A stretch of 64,000 bases of DNA from Escherichia coli. Lineage in GTDB: Bacteria; Pseudomonadota; Gammaproteobacteria; Enterobacterales; Enterobacteriaceae. Positions within the stretch are counted from its first letter, which is position 1. Every line of letters begins with the position of its first letter. A program made the position numbers and the translations under genes. This document shows, one piece after another, positions 36,824-50,247 of the stretch. Where the stretch lies: assembly GCF_003334815.1 (NCBI RefSeq), contig NZ_QOWO01000017.1; one strand, written 5' to 3'. The notes beneath the pieces were generated by a model. That model had not been told where the DNA came from, did no database searches, and worked only from the letters and a program-made list of their open reading frames with translations.

Positions 36824-37386
36824 AGCAAGCGAACATCCACGGCGTCCATGCCTGCTGCACGGGCCGCCTGAATACCGAAATCGGCATCTTCAAAGACCAC
36901 ACACTGCGTCGGTTGCACGCCCATACGCTGCGCGCACAACAAAAATGTGTCTGGCGCGGGTTTATGGTGTTTGACGTGATCGGCAGCGACGACGGCGTCA
37001 AAATAATGGCGTAATCCCAGGTGCGCCAGCAATGCCTCAGCGATGGCGCTTTCACTCCCCGTTCCTACAGCCATTGGGCGACGACCATGCCAACTTTTCA
37101 CCACATCAACAAGAGGAAGCGGTTCGACGCTATCCAGCAGCATACTTCTTACTGCTTCTGTTTTTTCACGCGCTAACGCATGCGGGTCGAGATCGGCCTG
37201 ATTCAGCTCAATAATTGCCTGAGCAATACGCCAGGTGGGCGATCCATTAAGCGCAATCATCGCCTGAATATCGTACTGAAGACCGTAGTGCCCTAATACT
37301 TCGCGCCACGCTTTACGGTGCGTAGGCTCCGTATCCAGGATTGTGCCATCCATATCAAAAATTAAACCTGCATAACGCTCGTACAT
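36820..37386 (-). CDS. yqaB: HAD-family sugar phosphatase
   Basis: 188 aa; DMDGT HAD motif I; overlaps yqaA start by 4 nt. Confidence 0.85.
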   Translation of the reverse strand: MYERYAGLIFDMDGTILDTEPTHRKAWREVLGHYGLQYDIQAMIALNGSPTWRIAQAIIELNQADLDPHALAREKTEAVRSMLLDSVEPLPLVDVVKSWHGRRPMAVGTGSESAIAEALLAHLGLRHYFDAVVAADHVKHHKPAPDTFLLCAQRMGVQPTQCVVFEDADFGIQAARAAGMDAVDVRLL

Positions 37387-37666
37387 GGTCTTCTCGCAAG
37401 TCGAAAAATATGACGCTACTTTAGCGTAATTGCTTGATTTTGTCGCTGATGGCGAAGGAGAAGAAAATTCAGGAAATGGATAAAGGAGTTATTTAGAAAT
37501 GAGATATTTTTGAAGGAAATTTTTTGGAGAAGATGGTGCATCCGGGAGGATGACTCACTGACGTTCGCCCTTCGGGCCGTTGCTGGCGCAACGTTATCCT
37601 TCCTGGTGCCTGCGGTTAATACCGCTATCTCTTCGATACCTTCATTGCTGAAGGTTACGGAGAATA

Positions 37667-37743
37667 TGGTGCATCCGGGAGGATTCGAACCTCCGACCGC
37701 TCGGTTCGTAGCCGAGTACTCTATCCAGCTGAGCTACGGATGC
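37667..37743 (-). tRNA. tRNA-Arg (anticodon ACG)
   Basis: Reverse complement GCATCCGTAGCTCAGCTGGATAGAGTACTCGGCTACGAACCGAGCGGTCGGAGGTTCGAATCCTCCCGGATGCACCA. Confidence 0.9.
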
Positions 37744-37941
37744 ATCGGGAAAACTTATTCTACTGCTGATATTGATACCGCTACTAAAGCCATATCAATT
37801 AAGAGATGGTGCATCCGGGAGGATTACTCGCCTTGCGGCTCGCCCTTCGGGCCGTTGCTAAAGCAACGTTATCATCCCTAGTGCCTGCGGTTAATACCGC
37901 TATCTCTTCGATACCTTCATTGCTGAAGGTTACGGAGAATA

Positions 37942-38018
37942 TGGTGCATCCGGGAGGATTCGAACCTCCGACCGCTCGGTTCGTAGCCGAGTACTCTATC
38001 CAGCTGAGCTACGGATGC
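37942..38018 (-). tRNA. tRNA-Arg (anticodon ACG), second identical copy
   Basis: Identical 77-nt sequence 275 bp downstream of the first copy. Confidence 0.9.
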
Positions 38019-38021
38019 AAA

Positions 38022-38114
38022 TGGCGGTGAGGCGGGGATTCGAACCCCGGATGCAGCTTTTGACCGCATACTCCCTTAGCAGGGGAGCGCCTTCAGCCTC
38101 TCGGCCACCTCACC
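38022..38114 (-). tRNA. serV: tRNA-Ser (anticodon GCU)
   Basis: Reverse complement GGTGAGGTGGCCGAGAGGCTGAAGGCGCTCCCCTGCTAAGGGAGTATGCGGTCAAAAGCTGCATCCGGGGTTCGAATCCCCGCCTCACCGCCA, long variable arm. Confidence 0.9.
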
Positions 38115-38429
38115 ACACGCCTCTTACGAGTGCTTCGAAGAACTTGTTTATCGCTCATCGTCGCTGCGTGGCGCACATATTACTTTCTGAGACTTATAAG
38201 TCAAACAATTTTTCCTACACTTTTATCGTTTGCACACTTCACGTTCAATTAGTCTGTAAAAACGTCAAAAAGAGTGTTTTATCAACAGAAGAATGGAGGT
38301 CTGACAGATAGTAGTAATGCAAAAAAATGGAGACTTAAGTTGAATGAACGGGAGTAAAGCGAAAAGACTATAGAGTGAAGGAGAAATTTTGAGGGTGCGT
38401 CTCACCGATAAAGATGAGACGCGGAAAGA

Positions 38430-38615
38430 TTAGTAACTGGACTGCTGGGATTTTTCAGCCTGGATACGCTGGTAGATCTCTTCACGGTGAACAGAAACTT
38501 CCTTCGGGGCATTTACGCCAATACGTACCTGGTTGCCCTTTACCCCTAAAACTGTCACGGTGACCTCATCCCCAATCATGAGGGTCTCACCAACTCGACG
38601 AGTCAGAATCAGCAT
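38430..38615 (-). CDS. csrA: Carbon storage regulator CsrA (RNA-binding)
   Basis: 61 aa [61 protein letters not shown]. Confidence 0.95.
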
Positions 38616-38849
38616 TCTTTGCTCCTTGAAAGATTAAAAGAGTCGGGTCTCTCTGTATCCCGGCATTATCCATCATATAACGCCAAAAAGTAAGCAATGA
38701 CAAACACATTACATCTAAGCAGTCATGGCATTACATTCTGTTAAACCTAAGTTTAGCCGATATACACAACTTCAACCTGACTTTATCGTTGTCGATAGCG
38801 TTAATGCGAATGCCGTGAAGCGAGTCCACGGCATTGCCTGACGCTTATA

Positions 38850-41480
38850 TTATTGCAATTTCGCGCTGACCCAGCCTTTCACACTGGCTAACGCTGCAGG
38901 TAAGGCCGCAGCATCCGTACCACCGGCTTGCGCCATGTCAGGACGTCCACCACCCTTGCCGCCCACCTGCTGAGCGACCATACCAATCAGTTCCCCTGCT
39001 TTCACACGATCTGTGACGTCCTTAGATACGCCTGCAATCAGAGAAACCTTACCTTCGACTACCGTTGCCAGCACGATAATTGTCGACCCCAGCTGATTTT
39101 TTAAATCGTCAACCATGGTACGCAACATTTTCGGCTCAACACCGCTAAGCTCGCTAACCAACAGCTTAACACCATTAACATCAATTGCCTTACTGGAAAG
39201 ATTTGCGCTCTCCTGTGCGGCAGCTTGTTCTTTAAGCTGTTGTAACTCTTTTTCCAGCTGACGCGTACGTTCCAGTACTGAGCGCACTTTATCAGCCAGA
39301 TTATTGCTATCGCCTTTCAGCAGATGCGCGACTTCGCTTAAGCGATCGCTGTCTGCATGAACGGTGGCGATAGCACCTTCTCCGGTTACCGCTTCGATAC
39401 GACGAACGCCTGCAGCAGTACCCGATTCAGAGATGATGCGGAACAGACCAATATCACCAGTGCGGCTGGCGTGAGTACCGCCACACAACTCGGTAGAGAA
39501 ATCGCCCATGCTCAGCACGCGTACGCGCTCATCATACTTCTCGCCGAACAGCGCCATCGCACCTTTCGCTTTCGCCGCTTCGAGATCCATGATGTTGGTT
39601 TCGATCGGCAAATTGCGACGAATCTGTGTGTTCACCAGGTCTTCGACCGCACGAATCTCTTCTGGTTTCATCGCTTCGTTGTGTGAGAAGTCGAAGCGCA
39701 GCACCTTGTCGTTAACCAGTGAACCTTTCTGCGATACATGAGTACCCAGAACCTGGCGCAGCGCAGCGTGCATCAGGTGCGTTGCGGAGTGATTCAGACG
39801 AATACGGGCGCGACGAGCCTCATCAACATCAGCCTGCACCGCGTCGCCCACTTTCAGAGAACCCGCAGCAAGTTTACCGATGTGACCAATCGCCTGGCCG
39901 TATTTCTGCGTATCTTCCACCGCAAAGGAGAAGTTAGCGCCTTTCAGTTCGCCTTTATCGCCAACCTGACCGCCGGATTCCGCATAGAATGGCGTTTGAT
40001 CCAGCACGACCACAGCTTCCTGGCCTGCATTGATGGCATCAACCGCTTTACCATCAACAAACAGCGCAGTCACTTTGCCGTTCAGTTCCAGATGGTCATA
40101 GCCTTTAAATTCAGATGCACTGTCAACACGGATCATTGCGTTGTAATCGGCACCAAAGCCGCTGGCTTCGCGCGCGCGACGACGCTGCTCTTCCATTGCA
40201 GCTTCAAAACCAGCTTCGTCAACTTTGATGTTGCGCTCACGACAAACATCAGCCGTCAGGTCAACCGGGAAGCCATAGGTGTCGTACAGACGGAAAGCAG
40301 TTTCACCATCCAGCGTATCACCAGAAAGTTTTGCCAGCTCTTCATCCAGCAACGCCAGACCGCGCTCCAGAGTACGAGCAAACTGCTCTTCTTCAGTCTT
40401 CAGCACCTGCTCAACCTGCGCCTGCTGGCGTTTCAGGTCTTCACCCGCAGAGCCCATAACGTCGATCAGCGGACCAACCAGTTTGTAGAAGAAGGTTTCT
40501 TTCGCGCCGAGCATATTACCGTGACGCACTGCGCGACGAATGATACGACGCAGTACATAACCACGGTTTTCATTGGACGGCATTACGCCATCCGCGATCA
40601 GGAACGCACAAGAACGAATGTGGTCAGCGATTACGCGCAGCGATTTATTGCTCAGATCGGTTGCGCCAGTGACTTTCGCTACCGCCTGGATCAGCGTGCG
40701 GAACAGGTCGATGTCATAGTTAGAGTTAACGTGTTGCAGCACCGCAGCAATACGCTCCAGACCCATACCGGTATCTACAGACGGCTTCGGCAGCGGTTCC
40801 ATCGTGCCATCGGCCTGGCGGTTGAACTGCATGAAGACGATGTTCCAGATCTCAATGTAGCGGTCGCCGTCTTCTTCCGGGCTTCCCGGAGGGCCCCCCC
40901 AAATGTGGTCGCCGTGATCGTAGAAGATTTCGGTGCACGGGCCGCACGGACCAGTGTCACCCATCTGCCAGAAGTTGTCAGATGCGTATGGCGCACCTTT
41001 GTTATCGCCGATGCGAATAATACGTTCGCGCGGGATCCCTACTTCTTTTTCCCAGATTTCGTAGGCTTCGTCGTCGCTTTCATAGACGGTAACCCACAGA
41101 CGCTCTTTCGGCAGGGCAAACCATTTTTCGCTGGTCAGCAGTTCCCATGCAAACTGAATGGCATCGTGTTTGAAATAGTCGCCGAAGCTGAAGTTGCCCA
41201 GCATTTCGAAGAAGGTATGGTGACGCGCGGTGTAACCGACGTTTTCCAGGTCGTTGTGTTTACCACCCGCACGCACGCAGCGTTGGGAAGTGGTAGCGCG
41301 GGAATAATTACGCTTGTCGAGCCCAAGGAACACATCCTTGAACTGGTTCATCCCGGCGTTGGTAAACAACAAAGTTGGGTCGTTATGGGGTACCAGGGAG
41401 CTGCTGGCAACTACCTGATGTCCCTTACTATGGAAAAAGTCGAGAAACGCCTGACGGATCTCAGCGGTGCTCTTGCTCAT
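38850..41480 (-). CDS. alaS: Alanine--tRNA ligase
   Basis: 876 aa. Confidence 0.95.
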
Positions 41481-41607
41481 AATTATCCTGAAATCAAGCT
41501 AACGAAATATCGCCACCAGCTCCAGCGTGTCTTAACCGCCGGGCTGGTAACTGAAAAGTGGGAATAAGATAAGTTTTCTTGACTGGGAAGTAAAATACCG
41601 TATGCGT

Positions 41608-42108
41608 TCAGTCGGCAAAATTTCGCCAAATCTCCTGGATATCTTCCATCAGATAGCCACGATAGAGCAGAAAACGCTGGATCTTAACTTTTTCTGAAAA
41701 GACAGTTGGCAAAGGTTCGCCATATTTTCGCGTCGCCTGATCGCGCGCCAGTGCGCACCAGTCGATGTCACATTCACGCATCGCTTTTTCTGTCGCTTCG
41801 CGGGAAATACCTTTCTGATTCAGTTCCTGGCGAATACGCGCAGGTCCATAACCTTTGCGGCTACGGCTGGCGATAAAGCGCGCAACAAATCGGCTGTCAT
41901 CGAGATAGCCATGTTCATGGCACCAGGCAATAACGCGCTCGTAATCTTCTGCCGTAGCATCAATCTCTTCTGGGCCATTTTTGCCCATAATCGGTGCCGC
42001 GAGTTTACGTCGCAGTTCTTGCTCACTGTGATCGCGCACCGCCAGAATGCGTACCGCACGATCCAACAGGCGAGCATATGCCGGGCGACGGGATGTTGAT
42101 TCTGTCAT
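41608..42108 (-). CDS. recX: RecA regulator RecX
   Basis: 166 aa; immediately downstream of recA. Confidence 0.9.
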
Positions 42109-42124
42109 GGCATATCCTTACAAC

Positions 42125-42160
42125 TTAAAAAAGCAAAAGGGCCGCAGATGCGACCCTTGT
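42125..42160 (-). terminator. Hairpin plus T-run between recA and recX (partial terminator)
   Basis: Minus strand GGGTCGCATCTGCGGCCC followed by TTTTGCTTTTTT. Confidence 0.5.
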
Positions 42161-42176
42161 GTATCAAACAAGACGA

Positions 42177-43317
<1,141 letters not shown>

Positions 43318-43815
43318 TCAAGTGTTTTGTAGAAATTGTTGCCACAAGGTCTGCAATGCATACGCAGTAGCCTGACGACGCACCGCATCACGGTCGCCGC
43401 TGAAGCATTCCCGCCGGGTAATGCCTTCACCGCGGGCAGTGGCAAAAGCAAACCAGACGGTGCCGACAGGCTTCTCTTCACTGCCGCCATCCGGCCCGGC
43501 GATACCACTAATAGACACGGCATAATCAGCACGAGCCGCTTTCAGTGCGCCTATCGCCATTTCCACCACGACGGGTTCACTCACCGCGCCATGCTGCGCC
43601 AGCGTCTCTTCGCGTACGCCGATCATCTGCGCTTTGGCTTCGTTACTGTAGGTGACAAATCCGCGTTCAAACCAGGCGGAGCTACCGGCAATATCGGTAA
43701 TCACTTTCGCTACCCAACCACCGGTACAAGACTCGGCAGTTGTTACGGTTGCGCCACGGGCTTTCAGCGCCTGCCCAACCTGTTCACTTAACTGCATCAG
43801 TTCACTGTCAGTCAT
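43318..43815 (-). CDS. pncC: NMN amidohydrolase PncC (CinA-like)
   Basis: N-terminus MTDSELMQLSEQVGQALKARGATV, 165 aa. Confidence 0.85.
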   Translation of the reverse strand: MTDSELMQLSEQVGQALKARGATVTTAESCTGGWVAKVITDIAGSSAWFERGFVTYSNEAKAQMIGVREETLAQHGAVSEPVVVEMAIGALKAARADYAVSISGIAGPDGGSEEKPVGTVWFAFATARGEGITRRECFSGDRDAVRRQATAYALQTLWQQFLQNT

Positions 43816-43959
43816 CACAACCTCTGTCAGTCAAAAATTTATGCCGGACAAGATAGCACTTTCGTCAGGAAGATGGTGTTGGCGTTGCAATTTTACGAGG
43901 AGGATTCAGAAAAAAGCTGATTAGCCAGAGGGAAGCTCACGCCCCCCTCTTGTAAATAG

Positions 43960-45045
43960 CTACTGTACTCGCGCCAGCGCCACGGCTTGTCCTAACTGCC
44001 AGACCGCCATTGCGTAATGGGTGCTGTGGTTGTAACGGGTGATGGTGTAGAAGTTCGGCAGACCGTACCAGTACTGGTAGCCGGTGCCAACATCCAGACG
44101 CAGCAGGCTGGCTTGTTGATGGTTGCCCAGCGGCTGCTGTGGCGTTAAACCTGCGGCGGCAAGCTGCGAAATGCTGTACTTAGTTTTGAAGCCATTTGGC
44201 AAGCCTGGAGCCTGACCGTTTGCCATTACCGCGACCTGATCGCCTTTCACCCAGCCGTGCGCTTTGAAATAGTTCGCCACGCTACCGATCGCATCAACCG
44301 GATCCCACAGGTTGATATGCCCGTCGCCGCTGAAATCTACCGCATATTGTTTGTAAGACGACGGCATAAACTGTCCGTAGCCCATCGCCCCGGCAAAGGA
44401 ACCTTTCAGATTGAGCGGATCGTCCTGCTCGTCGCGCGCCATCAACAGGAAGGTTTCCAGCTCGCCAGAGAAATACTCCGCGCGGCGTGGGTAGTTAAAT
44501 GACAGCGTTGCCAGCGCATCGAGGATGCGAGTTTTCCCCATCACGCGCCCCCAGCGGGTTTCAACGCCGATAATCCCGACGATAATTTCCGGCGGTACTC
44601 CATACACCTGCCACGCGCGATTCAACGCATCTTCATACTGATTCCAGAAAACCACACCGTTCTGCACGTTGTCCGGCGTAATAAATTTTTTGCGATAACG
44701 GAGCCATGCGCCGTTCGGACCTGATGGCGGTTTCACCGATGTGGTTGGTGCCTGGTTATCCATCAGCCGCAGTACCGAATCCAGACGCTTCGCCTGGGAG
44801 AGAATTTCCTGCAACTGCTGACGATCGAAACCGTGTTTGTTCACCATTTTGTCGATGAACTGCTGGGCATTCGGGTTATTAGCGAAATCGCCGCCCATCT
44901 GCATCACATTGTGCTGCGGCTCAAGCAGGAAGCCGCCAGACGGCGTTCCGGTGGTCGTATCAGTCTCAGTAGGTTTTGGCTTGCTGCTACAGGCGGCAAG
45001 CAACACAAAAAGGGGAAGCAATGTTACATAACGACGCTTGAACAT
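43960..45045 (-). CDS. mltB: Membrane-bound lytic murein transglycosylase B
   Basis: N-terminus MFKRRYVTLLPLFVLLAACSS (lipoprotein signal, LAAC lipobox), 361 aa. Confidence 0.85.
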   Translation of the reverse strand: MFKRRYVTLLPLFVLLAACSSKPKPTETDTTTGTPSGGFLLEPQHNVMQMGGDFANNPNAQQFIDKMVNKHGFDRQQLQEILSQAKRLDSVLRLMDNQAPTTSVKPPSGPNGAWLRYRKKFITPDNVQNGVVFWNQYEDALNRAWQVYGVPPEIIVGIIGVETRWGRVMGKTRILDALATLSFNYPRRAEYFSGELETFLLMARDEQDDPLNLKGSFAGAMGYGQFMPSSYKQYAVDFSGDGHINLWDPVDAIGSVANYFKAHGWVKGDQVAVMANGQAPGLPNGFKTKYSISQLAAAGLTPQQPLGNHQQASLLRLDVGTGYQYWYGLPNFYTITRYNHSTHYAMAVWQLGQAVALARVQ

Positions 45046-45282
45046 GAGGGGTCCATTTAACAGATTCAACCAGGGGCAAGTATGGTAAAGCATCACGCCC
45101 CGCACAAGGAAGCGGTAGTCACTGCCCGATACGGACTTTACATAACTCAACTCATTCCCCTCGCTATCCTTTTATTCAAACTTTCAAATTAAAATATTTA
45201 TCTTTCATTTTGCGATCAAAATAACACTTTTAAATCTTTCAATCTGATTAGATTAGGTTGCCGTTTGGTAATAAAACAATAA

Positions 45283-46820
<1,538 letters not shown>

Positions 46821-46830
46821 AGGCTGAAAC

Positions 46831-47985
<1,155 letters not shown>

Positions 47986-48029
47986 TCAACAGCGGAGATC
48001 CATTAAGGATCTCCGTGAGACTATAGAAT

Positions 48030-48058
48030 GCCTGATGCGCTACGCTCATCAGGCATAC
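48030..48058. repeat. REP-like palindrome after srlD
   Basis: GCCTGATGCGCTACGCTCATCAGGCAT. Confidence 0.45.
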
Positions 48059-48089
48059 AGGACTTCCGCCACTACATTAAGGAAAAGTT

Positions 48090-48449
48090 ATGGTATCCGC
48101 ACTCATCACCGTCGCCGTTATCGCCTGGTGTGCGCAACTGGCCTTAGGCGGCTGGCAAATTTCTCGTTTTAACCGTGCCTTCGACACACTATGCCAGCAA
48201 GGGCGGGTTGGCGTGGGCCGTTCCAGCGGGCGCTTTAAACCGCGGGTCGTGGTCGCCATCGCGCTGGACGATCAGCAGCGCATCGTCGACACCTTGTTTA
48301 TGAAAGGACTGACCGTCTTCGCCCGACCGCAAAAAATTCCCGCAATTACCGGTATGCATGCGGGTGATTTACAGCCCGATGTGATCTTTCCCCATGATCC
48401 ACTATCACAGAATGCTCTATCATTGGCGCTTAAACTGAAACGTGGATAA
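48090..48449 (+). CDS. gutM: Glucitol operon activator GutM
   Basis: 119 aa. Confidence 0.85.
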   Translation: MVSALITVAVIAWCAQLALGGWQISRFNRAFDTLCQQGRVGVGRSSGRFKPRVVVAIALDDQQRIVDTLFMKGLTVFARPQKIPAITGMHAGDLQPDVIFPHDPLSQNALSLALKLKRG

Positions 48450-48515
48450 TTTCGTTGTGAATGTTACTTGCTTGCGAAGTTATCATTTTGAAACCTAAAT
48501 CAGGTAATCACGCCC

Positions 48516-49289
48516 ATGAAACCTCGTCAGCGTCAGGCCGCCATTCTGGAGTATCTGCAAAAGCAGGGTAAATGCTCGGTTGAAGAATTGGCGCAATACT
48601 TTGACACCACAGGCACAACCATTCGCAAAGATCTGGTCATTCTGGAACATGCCGGAACCGTCATTCGTACTTATGGCGGAGTGGTGTTGAATAAAGAGGA
48701 ATCCGATCCGCCTATCGATCATAAAACACTCATCAACACCCACAAGAAAGAGCTGATTGCAGAAGCTGCCGTTAGTTTTATCCATGATGGCGATTCGATC
48801 ATTCTTGATGCTGGCAGTACCGTTTTGCAGATGGTTCCCCTGCTCTCGCGCTTTAATAACATCACGGTGATGACCAACAGCCTGCATATCGTCAATGCGC
48901 TATCCGAACTGGATAACGAACAAACTATCCTGATGCCAGGCGGAACGTTTCGCAAAAAATCGGCCTCATTTCACGGGCAACTGGCAGAGAATGCCTTCGA
49001 GCATTTCACCTTCGATAAATTGTTTATGGGCACCGACGGCATCGATCTCAATGCGGGCGTAACCACCTTTAACGAGGTTTATACCGTCAGTAAGGCAATG
49101 TGCAATGCCGCGCGCGAAGTGATTTTGATGGCGGACTCATCAAAGTTTGGCCGTAAAAGCCCCAACGTAGTTTGCAGTCTTGAAAGCGTCGATAAGCTGA
49201 TTACCGACGCAGGTATCGATCCGGCGTTTCGTCAGGCGCTGGAAGAGAAAGGGATCGATGTGATCATAACCGGAGAGAGCAATGAGTGA
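48516..49289 (+). CDS. srlR: DeoR-family glucitol operon repressor
   Basis: 257 aa. Confidence 0.85.
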
Positions 49290-50247
49290 AGCACTACTGA
49301 ACGCGGGACGTCAGACGTTAATGCTGGAGTTGCAGGAAGCAAGCCGTTTACCGGAACGTCTGGGCGATGATTTTGTTCGCGCCGCCAATATCATCCTGCA
49401 CTGTGAAGGCAAAGTGGTGGTTTCGGGAATTGGCAAATCGGGCCACATTGGTAAGAAAATCGCCGCAACGCTTGCCAGTACCGGCACTCCGGCTTTTTTT
49501 GTCCATCCGGCAGAAGCGCTGCACGGCGATCTGGGGATGATCGAAAGCCGCGATGTGATGCTGTTTATCTCTTACTCCGGTGGCGCGAAGGAACTGGATC
49601 TGATTATTCCGCGTCTGGAAGATAAATCTATCGCGCTGCTGGCGATGACCGGCAAACCGACGTCACCGCTGGGCCTGGCGGCAAAAGCGGTGCTGGATAT
49701 CTCCGTAGAACGCGAAGCCTGCCCGATGCACCTTGCGCCGACCTCCAGCACCGTCAATACCCTGATGATGGGTGACGCGCTGGCGATGGCGGTCATGCAG
49801 GCGCGCGGATTTAATGAAGAAGATTTTGCCCGCTCCCACCCAGCCGGGGCACTGGGCGCTCGCTTGCTGAATAAAGTGCATCATCTGATGCGCCGTGACG
49901 ATGCCATCCCACAGGTGGCGTTAACCGCCAGCGTGATGGATGCGATGCTGGAACTCAGCCGCACCGGTCTGGGGCTGGTGGCGGTATGTGACGCTCAACA
50001 ACAGGTACAAGGCGTCTTTACCGACGGCGATTTACGTCGCTGGCTGGTTGGCGGCGGCGCACTCACCACGCCAGTCAATGAAGCGATGACGGTCGGCGGC
50101 ACCACGTTGCAATCGCAAAGTCGCGCCATCGACGCCAAAGAGATCCTGATGAAGCGCAAAATCACTGCCGCACCGGTGGTGGATGAAAACGGCAAACTCA
50201 CCGGCGCAATAAACCTGCAGGATTTCTATCAGGCCGGGATTATTTAA
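49282..50247 (+). CDS. gutQ: D-arabinose 5-phosphate isomerase (SIS + CBS domains)
   Basis: 321 aa. Confidence 0.9.

Follow-up and report, generated by a model that had tools for sequence, protein, structure and literature searches.

The window, a 64,000-nt stretch of Escherichia coli DNA (contig NZ_QOWO01000017.1), carries a copy-number allele of the serV-argVYZQ operon, in which a tRNA-Ser(GCU) gene is followed by tandem tRNA-Arg(ACG) genes. We consider it highly probable that the usual, ancestral four arginine genes were cut to two in this allele by the loss of a 414-bp unit, and that the additional tRNA 3′ ends found in the array are the ends of an element related to the RtT RNA and not gene remnants. 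The first part of this reading is carried by strain 52F4, whose four-copy array becomes the array of the window when 414 bp are removed, and the second by the alignment of the spacer blocks with RtT-type elements that follow other stable-RNA genes in Enterobacterales.

The two-copy array and its probable parent allele

The array lies between csrA and yqaB on the minus strand and begins with serV, which are the position, strand and gene order of the serV-argVYZQ operon, and its tRNA-Ser(GCU) and tRNA-Arg(ACG) sequences match those of K-12 exactly; of the four tandem tRNA-Arg genes that characterize the operon, ARAGORN finds two. The order of transcription is serV (38022-38114), TTT, tRNA-Arg copy 1 (37942-38018), a 198-nt spacer, tRNA-Arg copy 2 (37667-37743), which is the last gene of the array and the equivalent of argQ, and a 280-nt trailer that extends to the start of yqaB. 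The serV gene was called by ARAGORN and by the Rfam tRNA model (56.8 bits) and is identical to K-12 serV. Both tRNA-Arg genes were called by ARAGORN and Rfam and share one sequence, which is also that of the four K-12 genes; from start to start they are spaced by 275 bp, a distance that a previous annotation made from the DNA alone (the original prediction) had given and that the repeat finder reproduces. The same source had given four tandem copies for K-12, correctly, as the MG1655 array reads serV-argV-198-argY-62-argZ-198-argQ-280-yqaB (b2691-b2695).

The repeat finder detected a direct repeat of 180 nt (37565-37744 and 37840-38019, 97% identity) that consists of the tRNA and 103 nt of spacer. 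The tRNA 3′ end occurs four times in the array, twice within the genes and twice as extra copies at 37534-37551 (18 nt, ATCCTCCCGGATGCACCA on the minus strand) and 37807-37825 (19 nt), in agreement with the predicted 17-19 nt. Each 198-nt spacer is made up of a block of about 135 nt that runs from the CCA onward and closes with a copy of the tRNA 3′ end, followed by a plain leader of 62 or 63 nt, and the operon trailer opens with the same type of block. The original prediction had recognized the near-identical block of about 100 nt and the 3′-end copy but had placed the copy at the beginning of a spacer that precedes each gene; since transcription proceeds on the minus strand, each tRNA comes first, then its block, with the 3′-end copy last. 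Block 1 (135 nt, 37807-37941, minus strand) thus follows the CCA of copy 1 immediately and has the 19-nt copy at its end. It is separated from copy 2 by a plain 63-nt leader (37744-37806, minus strand) that sequence comparison identifies as the counterpart of the 62-nt argY-argZ spacer of K-12. Block 2 (133 nt, 37534-37666, minus strand) opens the trailer and ends with the 18-nt copy.

The 280-nt trailer of the window is identical to that of K-12, and the spacer equals the K-12 argZ-argQ (Z-Q) spacer except for its first 61 nt (37881-37941), which differ at 4 positions from the K-12 Z-Q spacer, are of the trailer type and are identical to the start of the trailer (37606-37666; the matching stretch is at 1501-1561 of locus L008). 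A single deletion from the K-12 array was rejected as the origin of the window because this 5′ part of the spacer is trailer-type. The comparison set comprised 5,426 complete E. coli genomes, and the 90-nt chimeric start of the spacer has an exact match in one of them, strain 52F4. Its four-copy array is serV-Arg-s7-Arg-s8-Arg-s2-Arg-s3, in which spacers 1 and 2 (s7 and s8) are K-12-like, and s2 and s3 are identical to the spacer and trailer of the window. The first and third tRNA-Arg genes of 52F4 lie 414 bp apart in a surrounding identity of 84 nt (T, tRNA and TATTCT), which corresponds to 37936-38019 on the minus strand of the window and bounds the deletion junction. When a 414-bp deletion between these two genes was simulated, the product matched the window with one mismatch in 2,676 nt; this mismatch is at 38421, outside the array and just past the csrA stop codon, where the minus strand of the window has C and 52F4 has T. 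A longer allele that differs by whole repeat units therefore exists, and the junction falls within a stretch that is identical in both recombining repeats. Unequal recombination or slippage between repeats predicts such a 414-bp product, and the 52F4 simulation agrees with it, thus supporting the contraction that had originally been proposed.

A two-step history, with one conversion and then one deletion between identical tRNA genes, is the simplest. The first 61 nt of the spacer look like a short gene-conversion tract between two RtT-like blocks, and the first step would have been a short conversion in which the trailer block overwrote part of the Z-Q spacer, a state that is visible in 52F4. 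Homologous recombination or replication slippage in a 52F4-type array would then have removed 414 bp (a tRNA gene, a 198-nt spacer, a tRNA gene and a 62-nt spacer) between the first and third tRNA-Arg genes, leaving serV-Arg-198 nt-Arg-trailer. A five-copy intermediate, formed by unequal crossover between the trailer and the Z-Q spacer and subsequently reduced by deletion, was also considered and is unnecessary given 52F4.

Copy number and recurrent loss in E. coli

Using the 77-nt tRNA-Arg(ACG) gene as query, we found 21,504 copies over the 5,426 genomes, with a median of 4 per genome and extremes of 1 and 9; APEC E123 is one of the genomes with a single copy. Counting copies in reference genomes had been suggested as a check on the contraction, and the references are not two-copy, as K-12 and the median genome have four. 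An evenly spaced sample of 60 genomes was nearly all four-copy, with one two-copy genome. Only 63 of the 5,426 genomes have, at one place, a match to at least 80% of the length of the two-copy locus (1,301 nt); among the best 60 of these 63, 14 have the arrangement serV-Arg-~198-Arg-trailer, 29 have two copies with a plain spacer of about 63 nt, 12 have three copies and five have one. The two-copy share, at least 43 of 5,426 (from the best 60 of 63) together with one genome in the sample of 60, is a lower bound and an estimate, not a census, and on this basis two-copy arrays are rare, roughly 1% of E. coli. One of the six tRNA-Arg(ACG) matches in XL10-Gold (NZ_CP081008.1, 4656236-4656535) lies outside the csrA locus beside two hypothetical-protein calls, and this off-locus match may sit on an F′ or engineered segment.

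Many genomes match the 20-kb flank of the array (38200-58200) at 100% identity, and among these the copy number is four, three or two. Strains G6/7, LAU-OXA and NCTC9041 carry the K-12-type four-copy array, BR1220 has three copies, and G1/2 has two copies with a junction that differs from that of the window. The G1/2 spacer is a chimera of the argV-argY (V-Y) and Z-Q spacers, with a V-Y 5′ part, a Z-Q 3′ part and a mosaic TAGGGAGG patch, thus placing the crossover within the RtT-like blocks. Both G1/2 and G6/7 are human faecal isolates from one study, and they share the same 20-kb flank with each other and with the window, yet have two and four copies, respectively.

The spacers retained in other two-copy genomes are equally varied. 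MC1061 keeps the K-12 Z-Q spacer; S17-1, TUM9812 and ETEC1749 have a V-Y block with a Z-Q-like leader; O104:H4 and M8 have a V-Y block with a leader that resembles the argY-argZ spacer; strain 2824 has the entire V-Y spacer, and GF43 has only a plain 63-nt spacer. These differences indicate independent, recurring losses, and the serV-arg array is a recombination-prone locus. The blocks extend the near-identical repeat unit from 77 nt to 275 nt, which helps to explain crossovers inside blocks, as in G1/2 and S17-1; long near-identical blocks would enlarge the homology that drives copy-number change.

The second tRNA-Arg gene of MC1061 (NZ_CP195014.1, 1968-2044) carries a C11-to-T substitution (GTAGTTCAGC). 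This variant gene occurs in 32 genomes, and the 15 listed are all four-copy, K-12-type laboratory strains, including DH10B, NEB10-beta, DHB4, ER1709, C3026, MT102 and GB2005, which presumably belong to the MC1061/DH10B lineage. Since MC1061 shares the variant with four-copy strains, its two-copy state reflects either a recent loss in a laboratory stock or a collapse during assembly.

RtT-like elements downstream of the tRNA genes

The tRNA fragments and the block of about 100 nt jointly form an RtT-like element, a relationship that the original prediction had missed; by sequence comparison, the fragments appear to be the ends of divergent elements of this kind and not decayed genes. Both blocks match the Rfam RtT family (RF00391, gathering threshold 45 bits) over the whole model or its 3′ half, with scores of 22.8-32.3 bits (27.1-32.3 bits for block 1, 22.8 bits for block 2). 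The K-12 Arg blocks score 22.8-31 bits, and the four RtT units of K-12 tyrT score 133-137 bits. Elements hosted by Tyr-, Lys- and Pro-tRNA genes pass the threshold (51-137 bits), whereas those hosted by Arg-tRNA and 5S rRNA genes do not, and the Arg loci of Enterobacter cloacae and Hafnia have no RF00391 match at threshold.

At residue level, the alignment to the 3′ half of the RtT model is convincing and comprises AACGUUGC-loop-GCAACGGCCCGAAGGGCGA...GAGUAAUCC followed by the 3′ end of the host. A core of AACGTTGC-loop-GCAACGGCCCGAAGGGCGA...GAGTnAT is common to the Arg blocks and to the RtT elements hosted by Tyr-, Lys- and Pro-tRNA genes. The Arg blocks thus share the conserved 3′ core hairpins with the model and with these elements, are located directly downstream of a tRNA gene and repeat the 3′ end of that tRNA at their own terminus. 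In the 5′ half, the GAACCU...AGGUUCGA and UCGAGCG...CGAGA hairpins of RtT are absent from the Arg blocks, which have CCUUCAGCAAUGAAGG and GCGGUAUUAACCGC hairpins instead, and cmscan marks non-pairs there.

A scan with a 17-nt core pattern, using one genome per species, located the core in many Enterobacterales directly after genes for tRNA-Tyr, tRNA-Lys(UUU), tRNA-Pro(CGG, UGG), tRNA-Arg(ACG) and 5S rRNA; outside E. coli, tRNA-Arg(ACG) hosts the core in Enterobacter cloacae and Hafnia. Many matches in high-GC genomes (Streptomyces and others) are without tRNA context and were set aside as chance. The aligned Enterobacterales elements end with the 3′ end of their own host, exactly in most cases and with at least one mismatch in Zophobihabitans, Tatumella and one Acerihabitans copy, and substitutions in the tRNA-Arg and tRNA-Lys of Hafnia are reproduced in the ends of the corresponding elements. 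These host-end repeats are 14-59 nt long and often include some trailer.

In Pseudescherichia vulneris (locus 929-1220), Acerihabitans and Enterobacter sp. Ag1, the repeat extends well beyond the CCA and takes in trailer or terminator sequence (38-59 nt in all), and in these hosts the structure is really about 1.3-1.4 tandem copies of a unit of about 130-170 nt that starts in the tRNA T-loop. In Superficieibacter electus (locus 1-231; also loci L117, L128 and L130), the core lies just after a 5S rRNA gene and scores below the RtT threshold; the element ends with a 22-nt copy of the 5S 3′ end (AACTGCCAGGCAT and trailer). At the Enterobacter cloacae locus, ARAGORN also reports a tRNA-Arg(tcg) at 3210-3282 on the minus strand, opposite a real tRNA-Arg(ACG) gene, which is very likely a spurious antisense call.

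In the literature we found only annotation-level mentions of RtT and nothing on the Arg operon. It is possible, and we propose it tentatively, that the blocks after tRNA-Arg and 5S rRNA genes are unrecognized branches of the RtT family that fall below the Rfam threshold. On this reading, one core follows all these kinds of gene, and in every case the two strands of the closing helix are adapted to the 3′ end of the host, in Hafnia even to its host-specific substitutions. Such a pattern would imply either that a copying mechanism is active and directs the element anew to stable-RNA gene 3′ ends, or that strong selection maintains a 3′-end mimic as a handle or decoy for the enzymes of tRNA and 5S RNA maturation.

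Predicted fold and possible processing

Single-sequence folding of the Arg blocks gave energies below those of shuffled controls (z -3.9 to -6.6), with -51.7 kcal/mol and z -4.4 for block 1 and z -4.8 for block 2. The predicted fold consists of two 5′ hairpins and a domain closed by pairing of GCACYAGGRAKGAU with AUCCUCCCGGAUGC, the copied T-stem/acceptor strand, which leaves ACCA as a free 3′ tail; in minimum-free-energy folds the closed domain encloses two or three small hairpins. The 5′ strand of the closing helix maps to 37871-37884 in block 1 and to 37596-37609 in block 2. This helix is predicted in all Arg blocks and has up to 13 pairs in the best-paired copy, the K-12 V-Y block, and fewer in both blocks of the window. 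A consensus fold of six Arg-type sequences from three genera retains this architecture and contains 43 pairs, 10 of which show changes on both sides, and pair 68/123 of the closing helix is G-C in E. coli and A-U in Hafnia, where it tracks the Hafnia tRNA.

An upstream strand complementary to the copied end is present in most elements at a fixed distance from the core; elements of the Arg type have 13 nt between strand and core, and most of those of the Tyr, Lys, Pro and 5S types about 50-55 nt. The best-scoring duplex lies off that position in several Lys elements (Klebsiella, Pluralibacter, Pseudescherichia) and in one Pro element. In the folding model, the closing helix resembles a tRNA acceptor/T-arm minihelix with an NCCA end. 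Such a tRNA mimic would, by analogy to RtT, let tRNA-maturation nucleases release the spacer as a separate RNA by-product. In the K-12 record rttR is listed as a small RNA, and rtT RNA has been described as involved in the processing of the tyrT transcript (10.1101/2024.07.17.603846).

Weighing the alternatives

Several observations weigh against a genuine contraction with RtT-like spacers. None of the 5,426 complete genomes has the same two-copy allele as the window, MC1061 (99.6%) coming closest. In addition, the array of the window can be traced exactly along a real four-copy array, that of the 52F4 type, so that a collapsed assembly and a deletion would look alike. The window blocks (22.8, 27.1 and 32.3 bits) do not reach the gathering threshold of RF00391, the 5′ half of the Arg-type element is unlike RtT, and the closing helix contains a mismatch in two of three E. 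coli block variants (GGGAUGAU or GGAAGGAU against AUCCUCCC), which indicates that the constraint on this helix is not strict.

The path through the 52F4-type array bears on an assembly artefact, a possibility that the original prediction had raised as well, in which the isolate truly has four copies and collapse of the tandem repeat dropped one 414-bp unit. The MC1061 assembly, with two copies compared to four in its descendants DH10B and NEB10-beta, documents at least one difference that arose at the level of a single assembly or laboratory stock. However, two-copy arrays with several junction types occur in finished genomes, and that of the O104:H4 outbreak clone is found in two separate assemblies. 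The repeat that would have to be collapsed has an identity of only 84 nt, which would be shorter than the k-mers and reads that assemblers now use. Read by eye, identities in a 52F4-type array extend to at most about 147 nt (the tRNA and the converted 61 nt), and collapse of that stretch would remove 275 bp and leave three copies. We therefore regard an artefact as unlikely and retain the 414-bp deletion.

The extra tRNA 3′ ends could also be att-site scars (attL/attR) of mobile elements once integrated in tRNA-Arg genes. Many tRNA-targeting integrases duplicate the segment from the T-loop to the CCA, which is what the repeat spans, and in other hosts the repeat runs beyond the CCA into the trailer, with 22-59 nt in total. 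Between gene and fragment in the window, however, there are just about 115 nt of structured non-coding sequence and no integrase, other element genes or cargo. The core recurs behind tRNA-Tyr, Lys, Pro, Arg and 5S rRNA genes, where it is combined with the host's own end and with a 5′ strand complementary to it, a pattern more readily explained by a structured RNA element than by random scars, and the same design in the tyrT operon is, from the K-12 annotation of rttR, a processed RNA. Scars of integration are therefore improbable, and the fragments are better read as element ends.

It is even less probable that two copies are ancestral and that four-copy arrays arose by duplication of a two-gene unit. 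The 198-62-198 pattern of the K-12 array does resemble a duplicated pair and points to some earlier duplication, but four copies, the E. coli median, are also present in both Enterobacter cloacae and Hafnia, which makes four the older state. The K-12-type four-copy array is carried by strains whose flanks match those of the window exactly, and two-copy arrays are rare, with many different junctions.

That the two plus-strand open reading frames (37510-37881, 123 amino acids, and 37806-38030, 74 amino acids) are real small genes can practically be dismissed, as both are open and have start codons but run antisense through tRNA genes and spacers, the peptide they have in common is the antisense translation of the tRNA, and RefSeq has no coding sequence between yqaB and csrA in 17 genomes examined; they are mechanical products, as had been predicted. 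Plus-strand Rfam matches to 'Plastid-ycf2' and 'Plastid-psbl-rps4' were ignored because they are antisense of the tRNAs and below threshold.

Gene dosage and significance

tRNA-Arg(ACG) reads CGU, CGC and CGA, the commonest arginine codons, after A34-to-I editing by TadA. Halving the gene dosage presumably lowers the supply of this tRNA (tRNA-Arg2). The argQZYV-serV unit contains all ACG-anticodon genes of K-12, could not be deleted without complementation and is essential (PMC11480407). Deletion of argYZQ, which leaves argV alone, reduced tRNA-Arg2 16-fold and impaired growth in LB in a manner similar to a tadA mutation (PMC13170351). By analogy, the phenotype of a two-copy array should lie between that of the argV-only strain and the wild type.

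The genes for the arginine tRNA of the commonest codons can thus be halved in natural isolates and laboratory strains, and their number changes within short periods, as it does between near-identical strains. Annotators should record neither the extra tRNA 3′ ends as pseudogenes or att sites nor the antisense open reading frames as genes. Both the locus and the process are of known kinds, namely tandem tRNA copy-number change and RtT-type spacers, and the variation is an ordinary polymorphism. The array of the window adds a further allele to a locus with one to nine copies within E. coli and in itself matters little; wider interest is confined to the RtT-type elements, which have host-matched ends after at least five kinds of stable-RNA genes.

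Other features of the window

The array is flanked by yqaB (start codon at 37386, minus strand) and csrA (38430-38615, minus strand), with gshA and yqaA on one side and alaS on the other. A consensus scan placed a candidate terminator-like hairpin with a T-run at 37404-37427 (minus strand), between the array and the yqaB start codon, and a candidate sigma-70-like promoter (9 of 12 positions) at 38177-38204 (minus strand), upstream of serV. The sole other tRNA gene in the window is a tRNA-Met(CAT) at 5638-5713 on the minus strand.

Comparison with known systems

Loss of one gene of the tyrT (su3) doublet by unequal recombination was reportedly described by Russell et al. in 1970 and by Egan and Landy in 1978, the repeat being 178 bp. 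As proposed for the window, tandem identical tRNA genes with repeated spacers had their copy number altered by recombination between repeats, although that case concerns another tRNA and locus, and the event in the window is deduced from genome comparison and was not observed genetically. The argYZQ deletion strain (PMC13170351) and the deletions of tRNA units (PMC11480407) lower the dosage of the same tRNA-Arg(ACG) genes, but leave one copy or none, whereas the window retains two.

The spacer blocks are closest in design to the RtT elements of tyrT-tyrV (rttR, RF00391). Both sit right after a tRNA gene on the same strand and close with 19 nt copied from the 3′ end of the host tRNA, CCA included; both have a homologous 3′ core, with the AACGUUGC hairpin, the GCCCGAAGGGC hairpin and GAGUAAUCC, and a closing helix in which an upstream strand pairs with the copied 3′ end; and both are tandemly repeated, which promotes unequal recombination. 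The Arg blocks differ in their host, tRNA-Arg, and in their scores (23-32 bits, where the threshold is 45 and the tyrT units reach 133-137 bits). Their 5′ half is unrelated, with two other hairpins replacing the GAACCU/AGGUUCGA hairpin, and the upstream strand of their closing helix is 13 nt from the core instead of about 55 nt. A further close system is the serV-argV-argY-argZ-argQ operon of K-12, which shares with the window the csrA and yqaB neighbours and the design of a 135-nt block followed by a 62/63-nt leader, and has four tRNA-Arg genes where the window has two.

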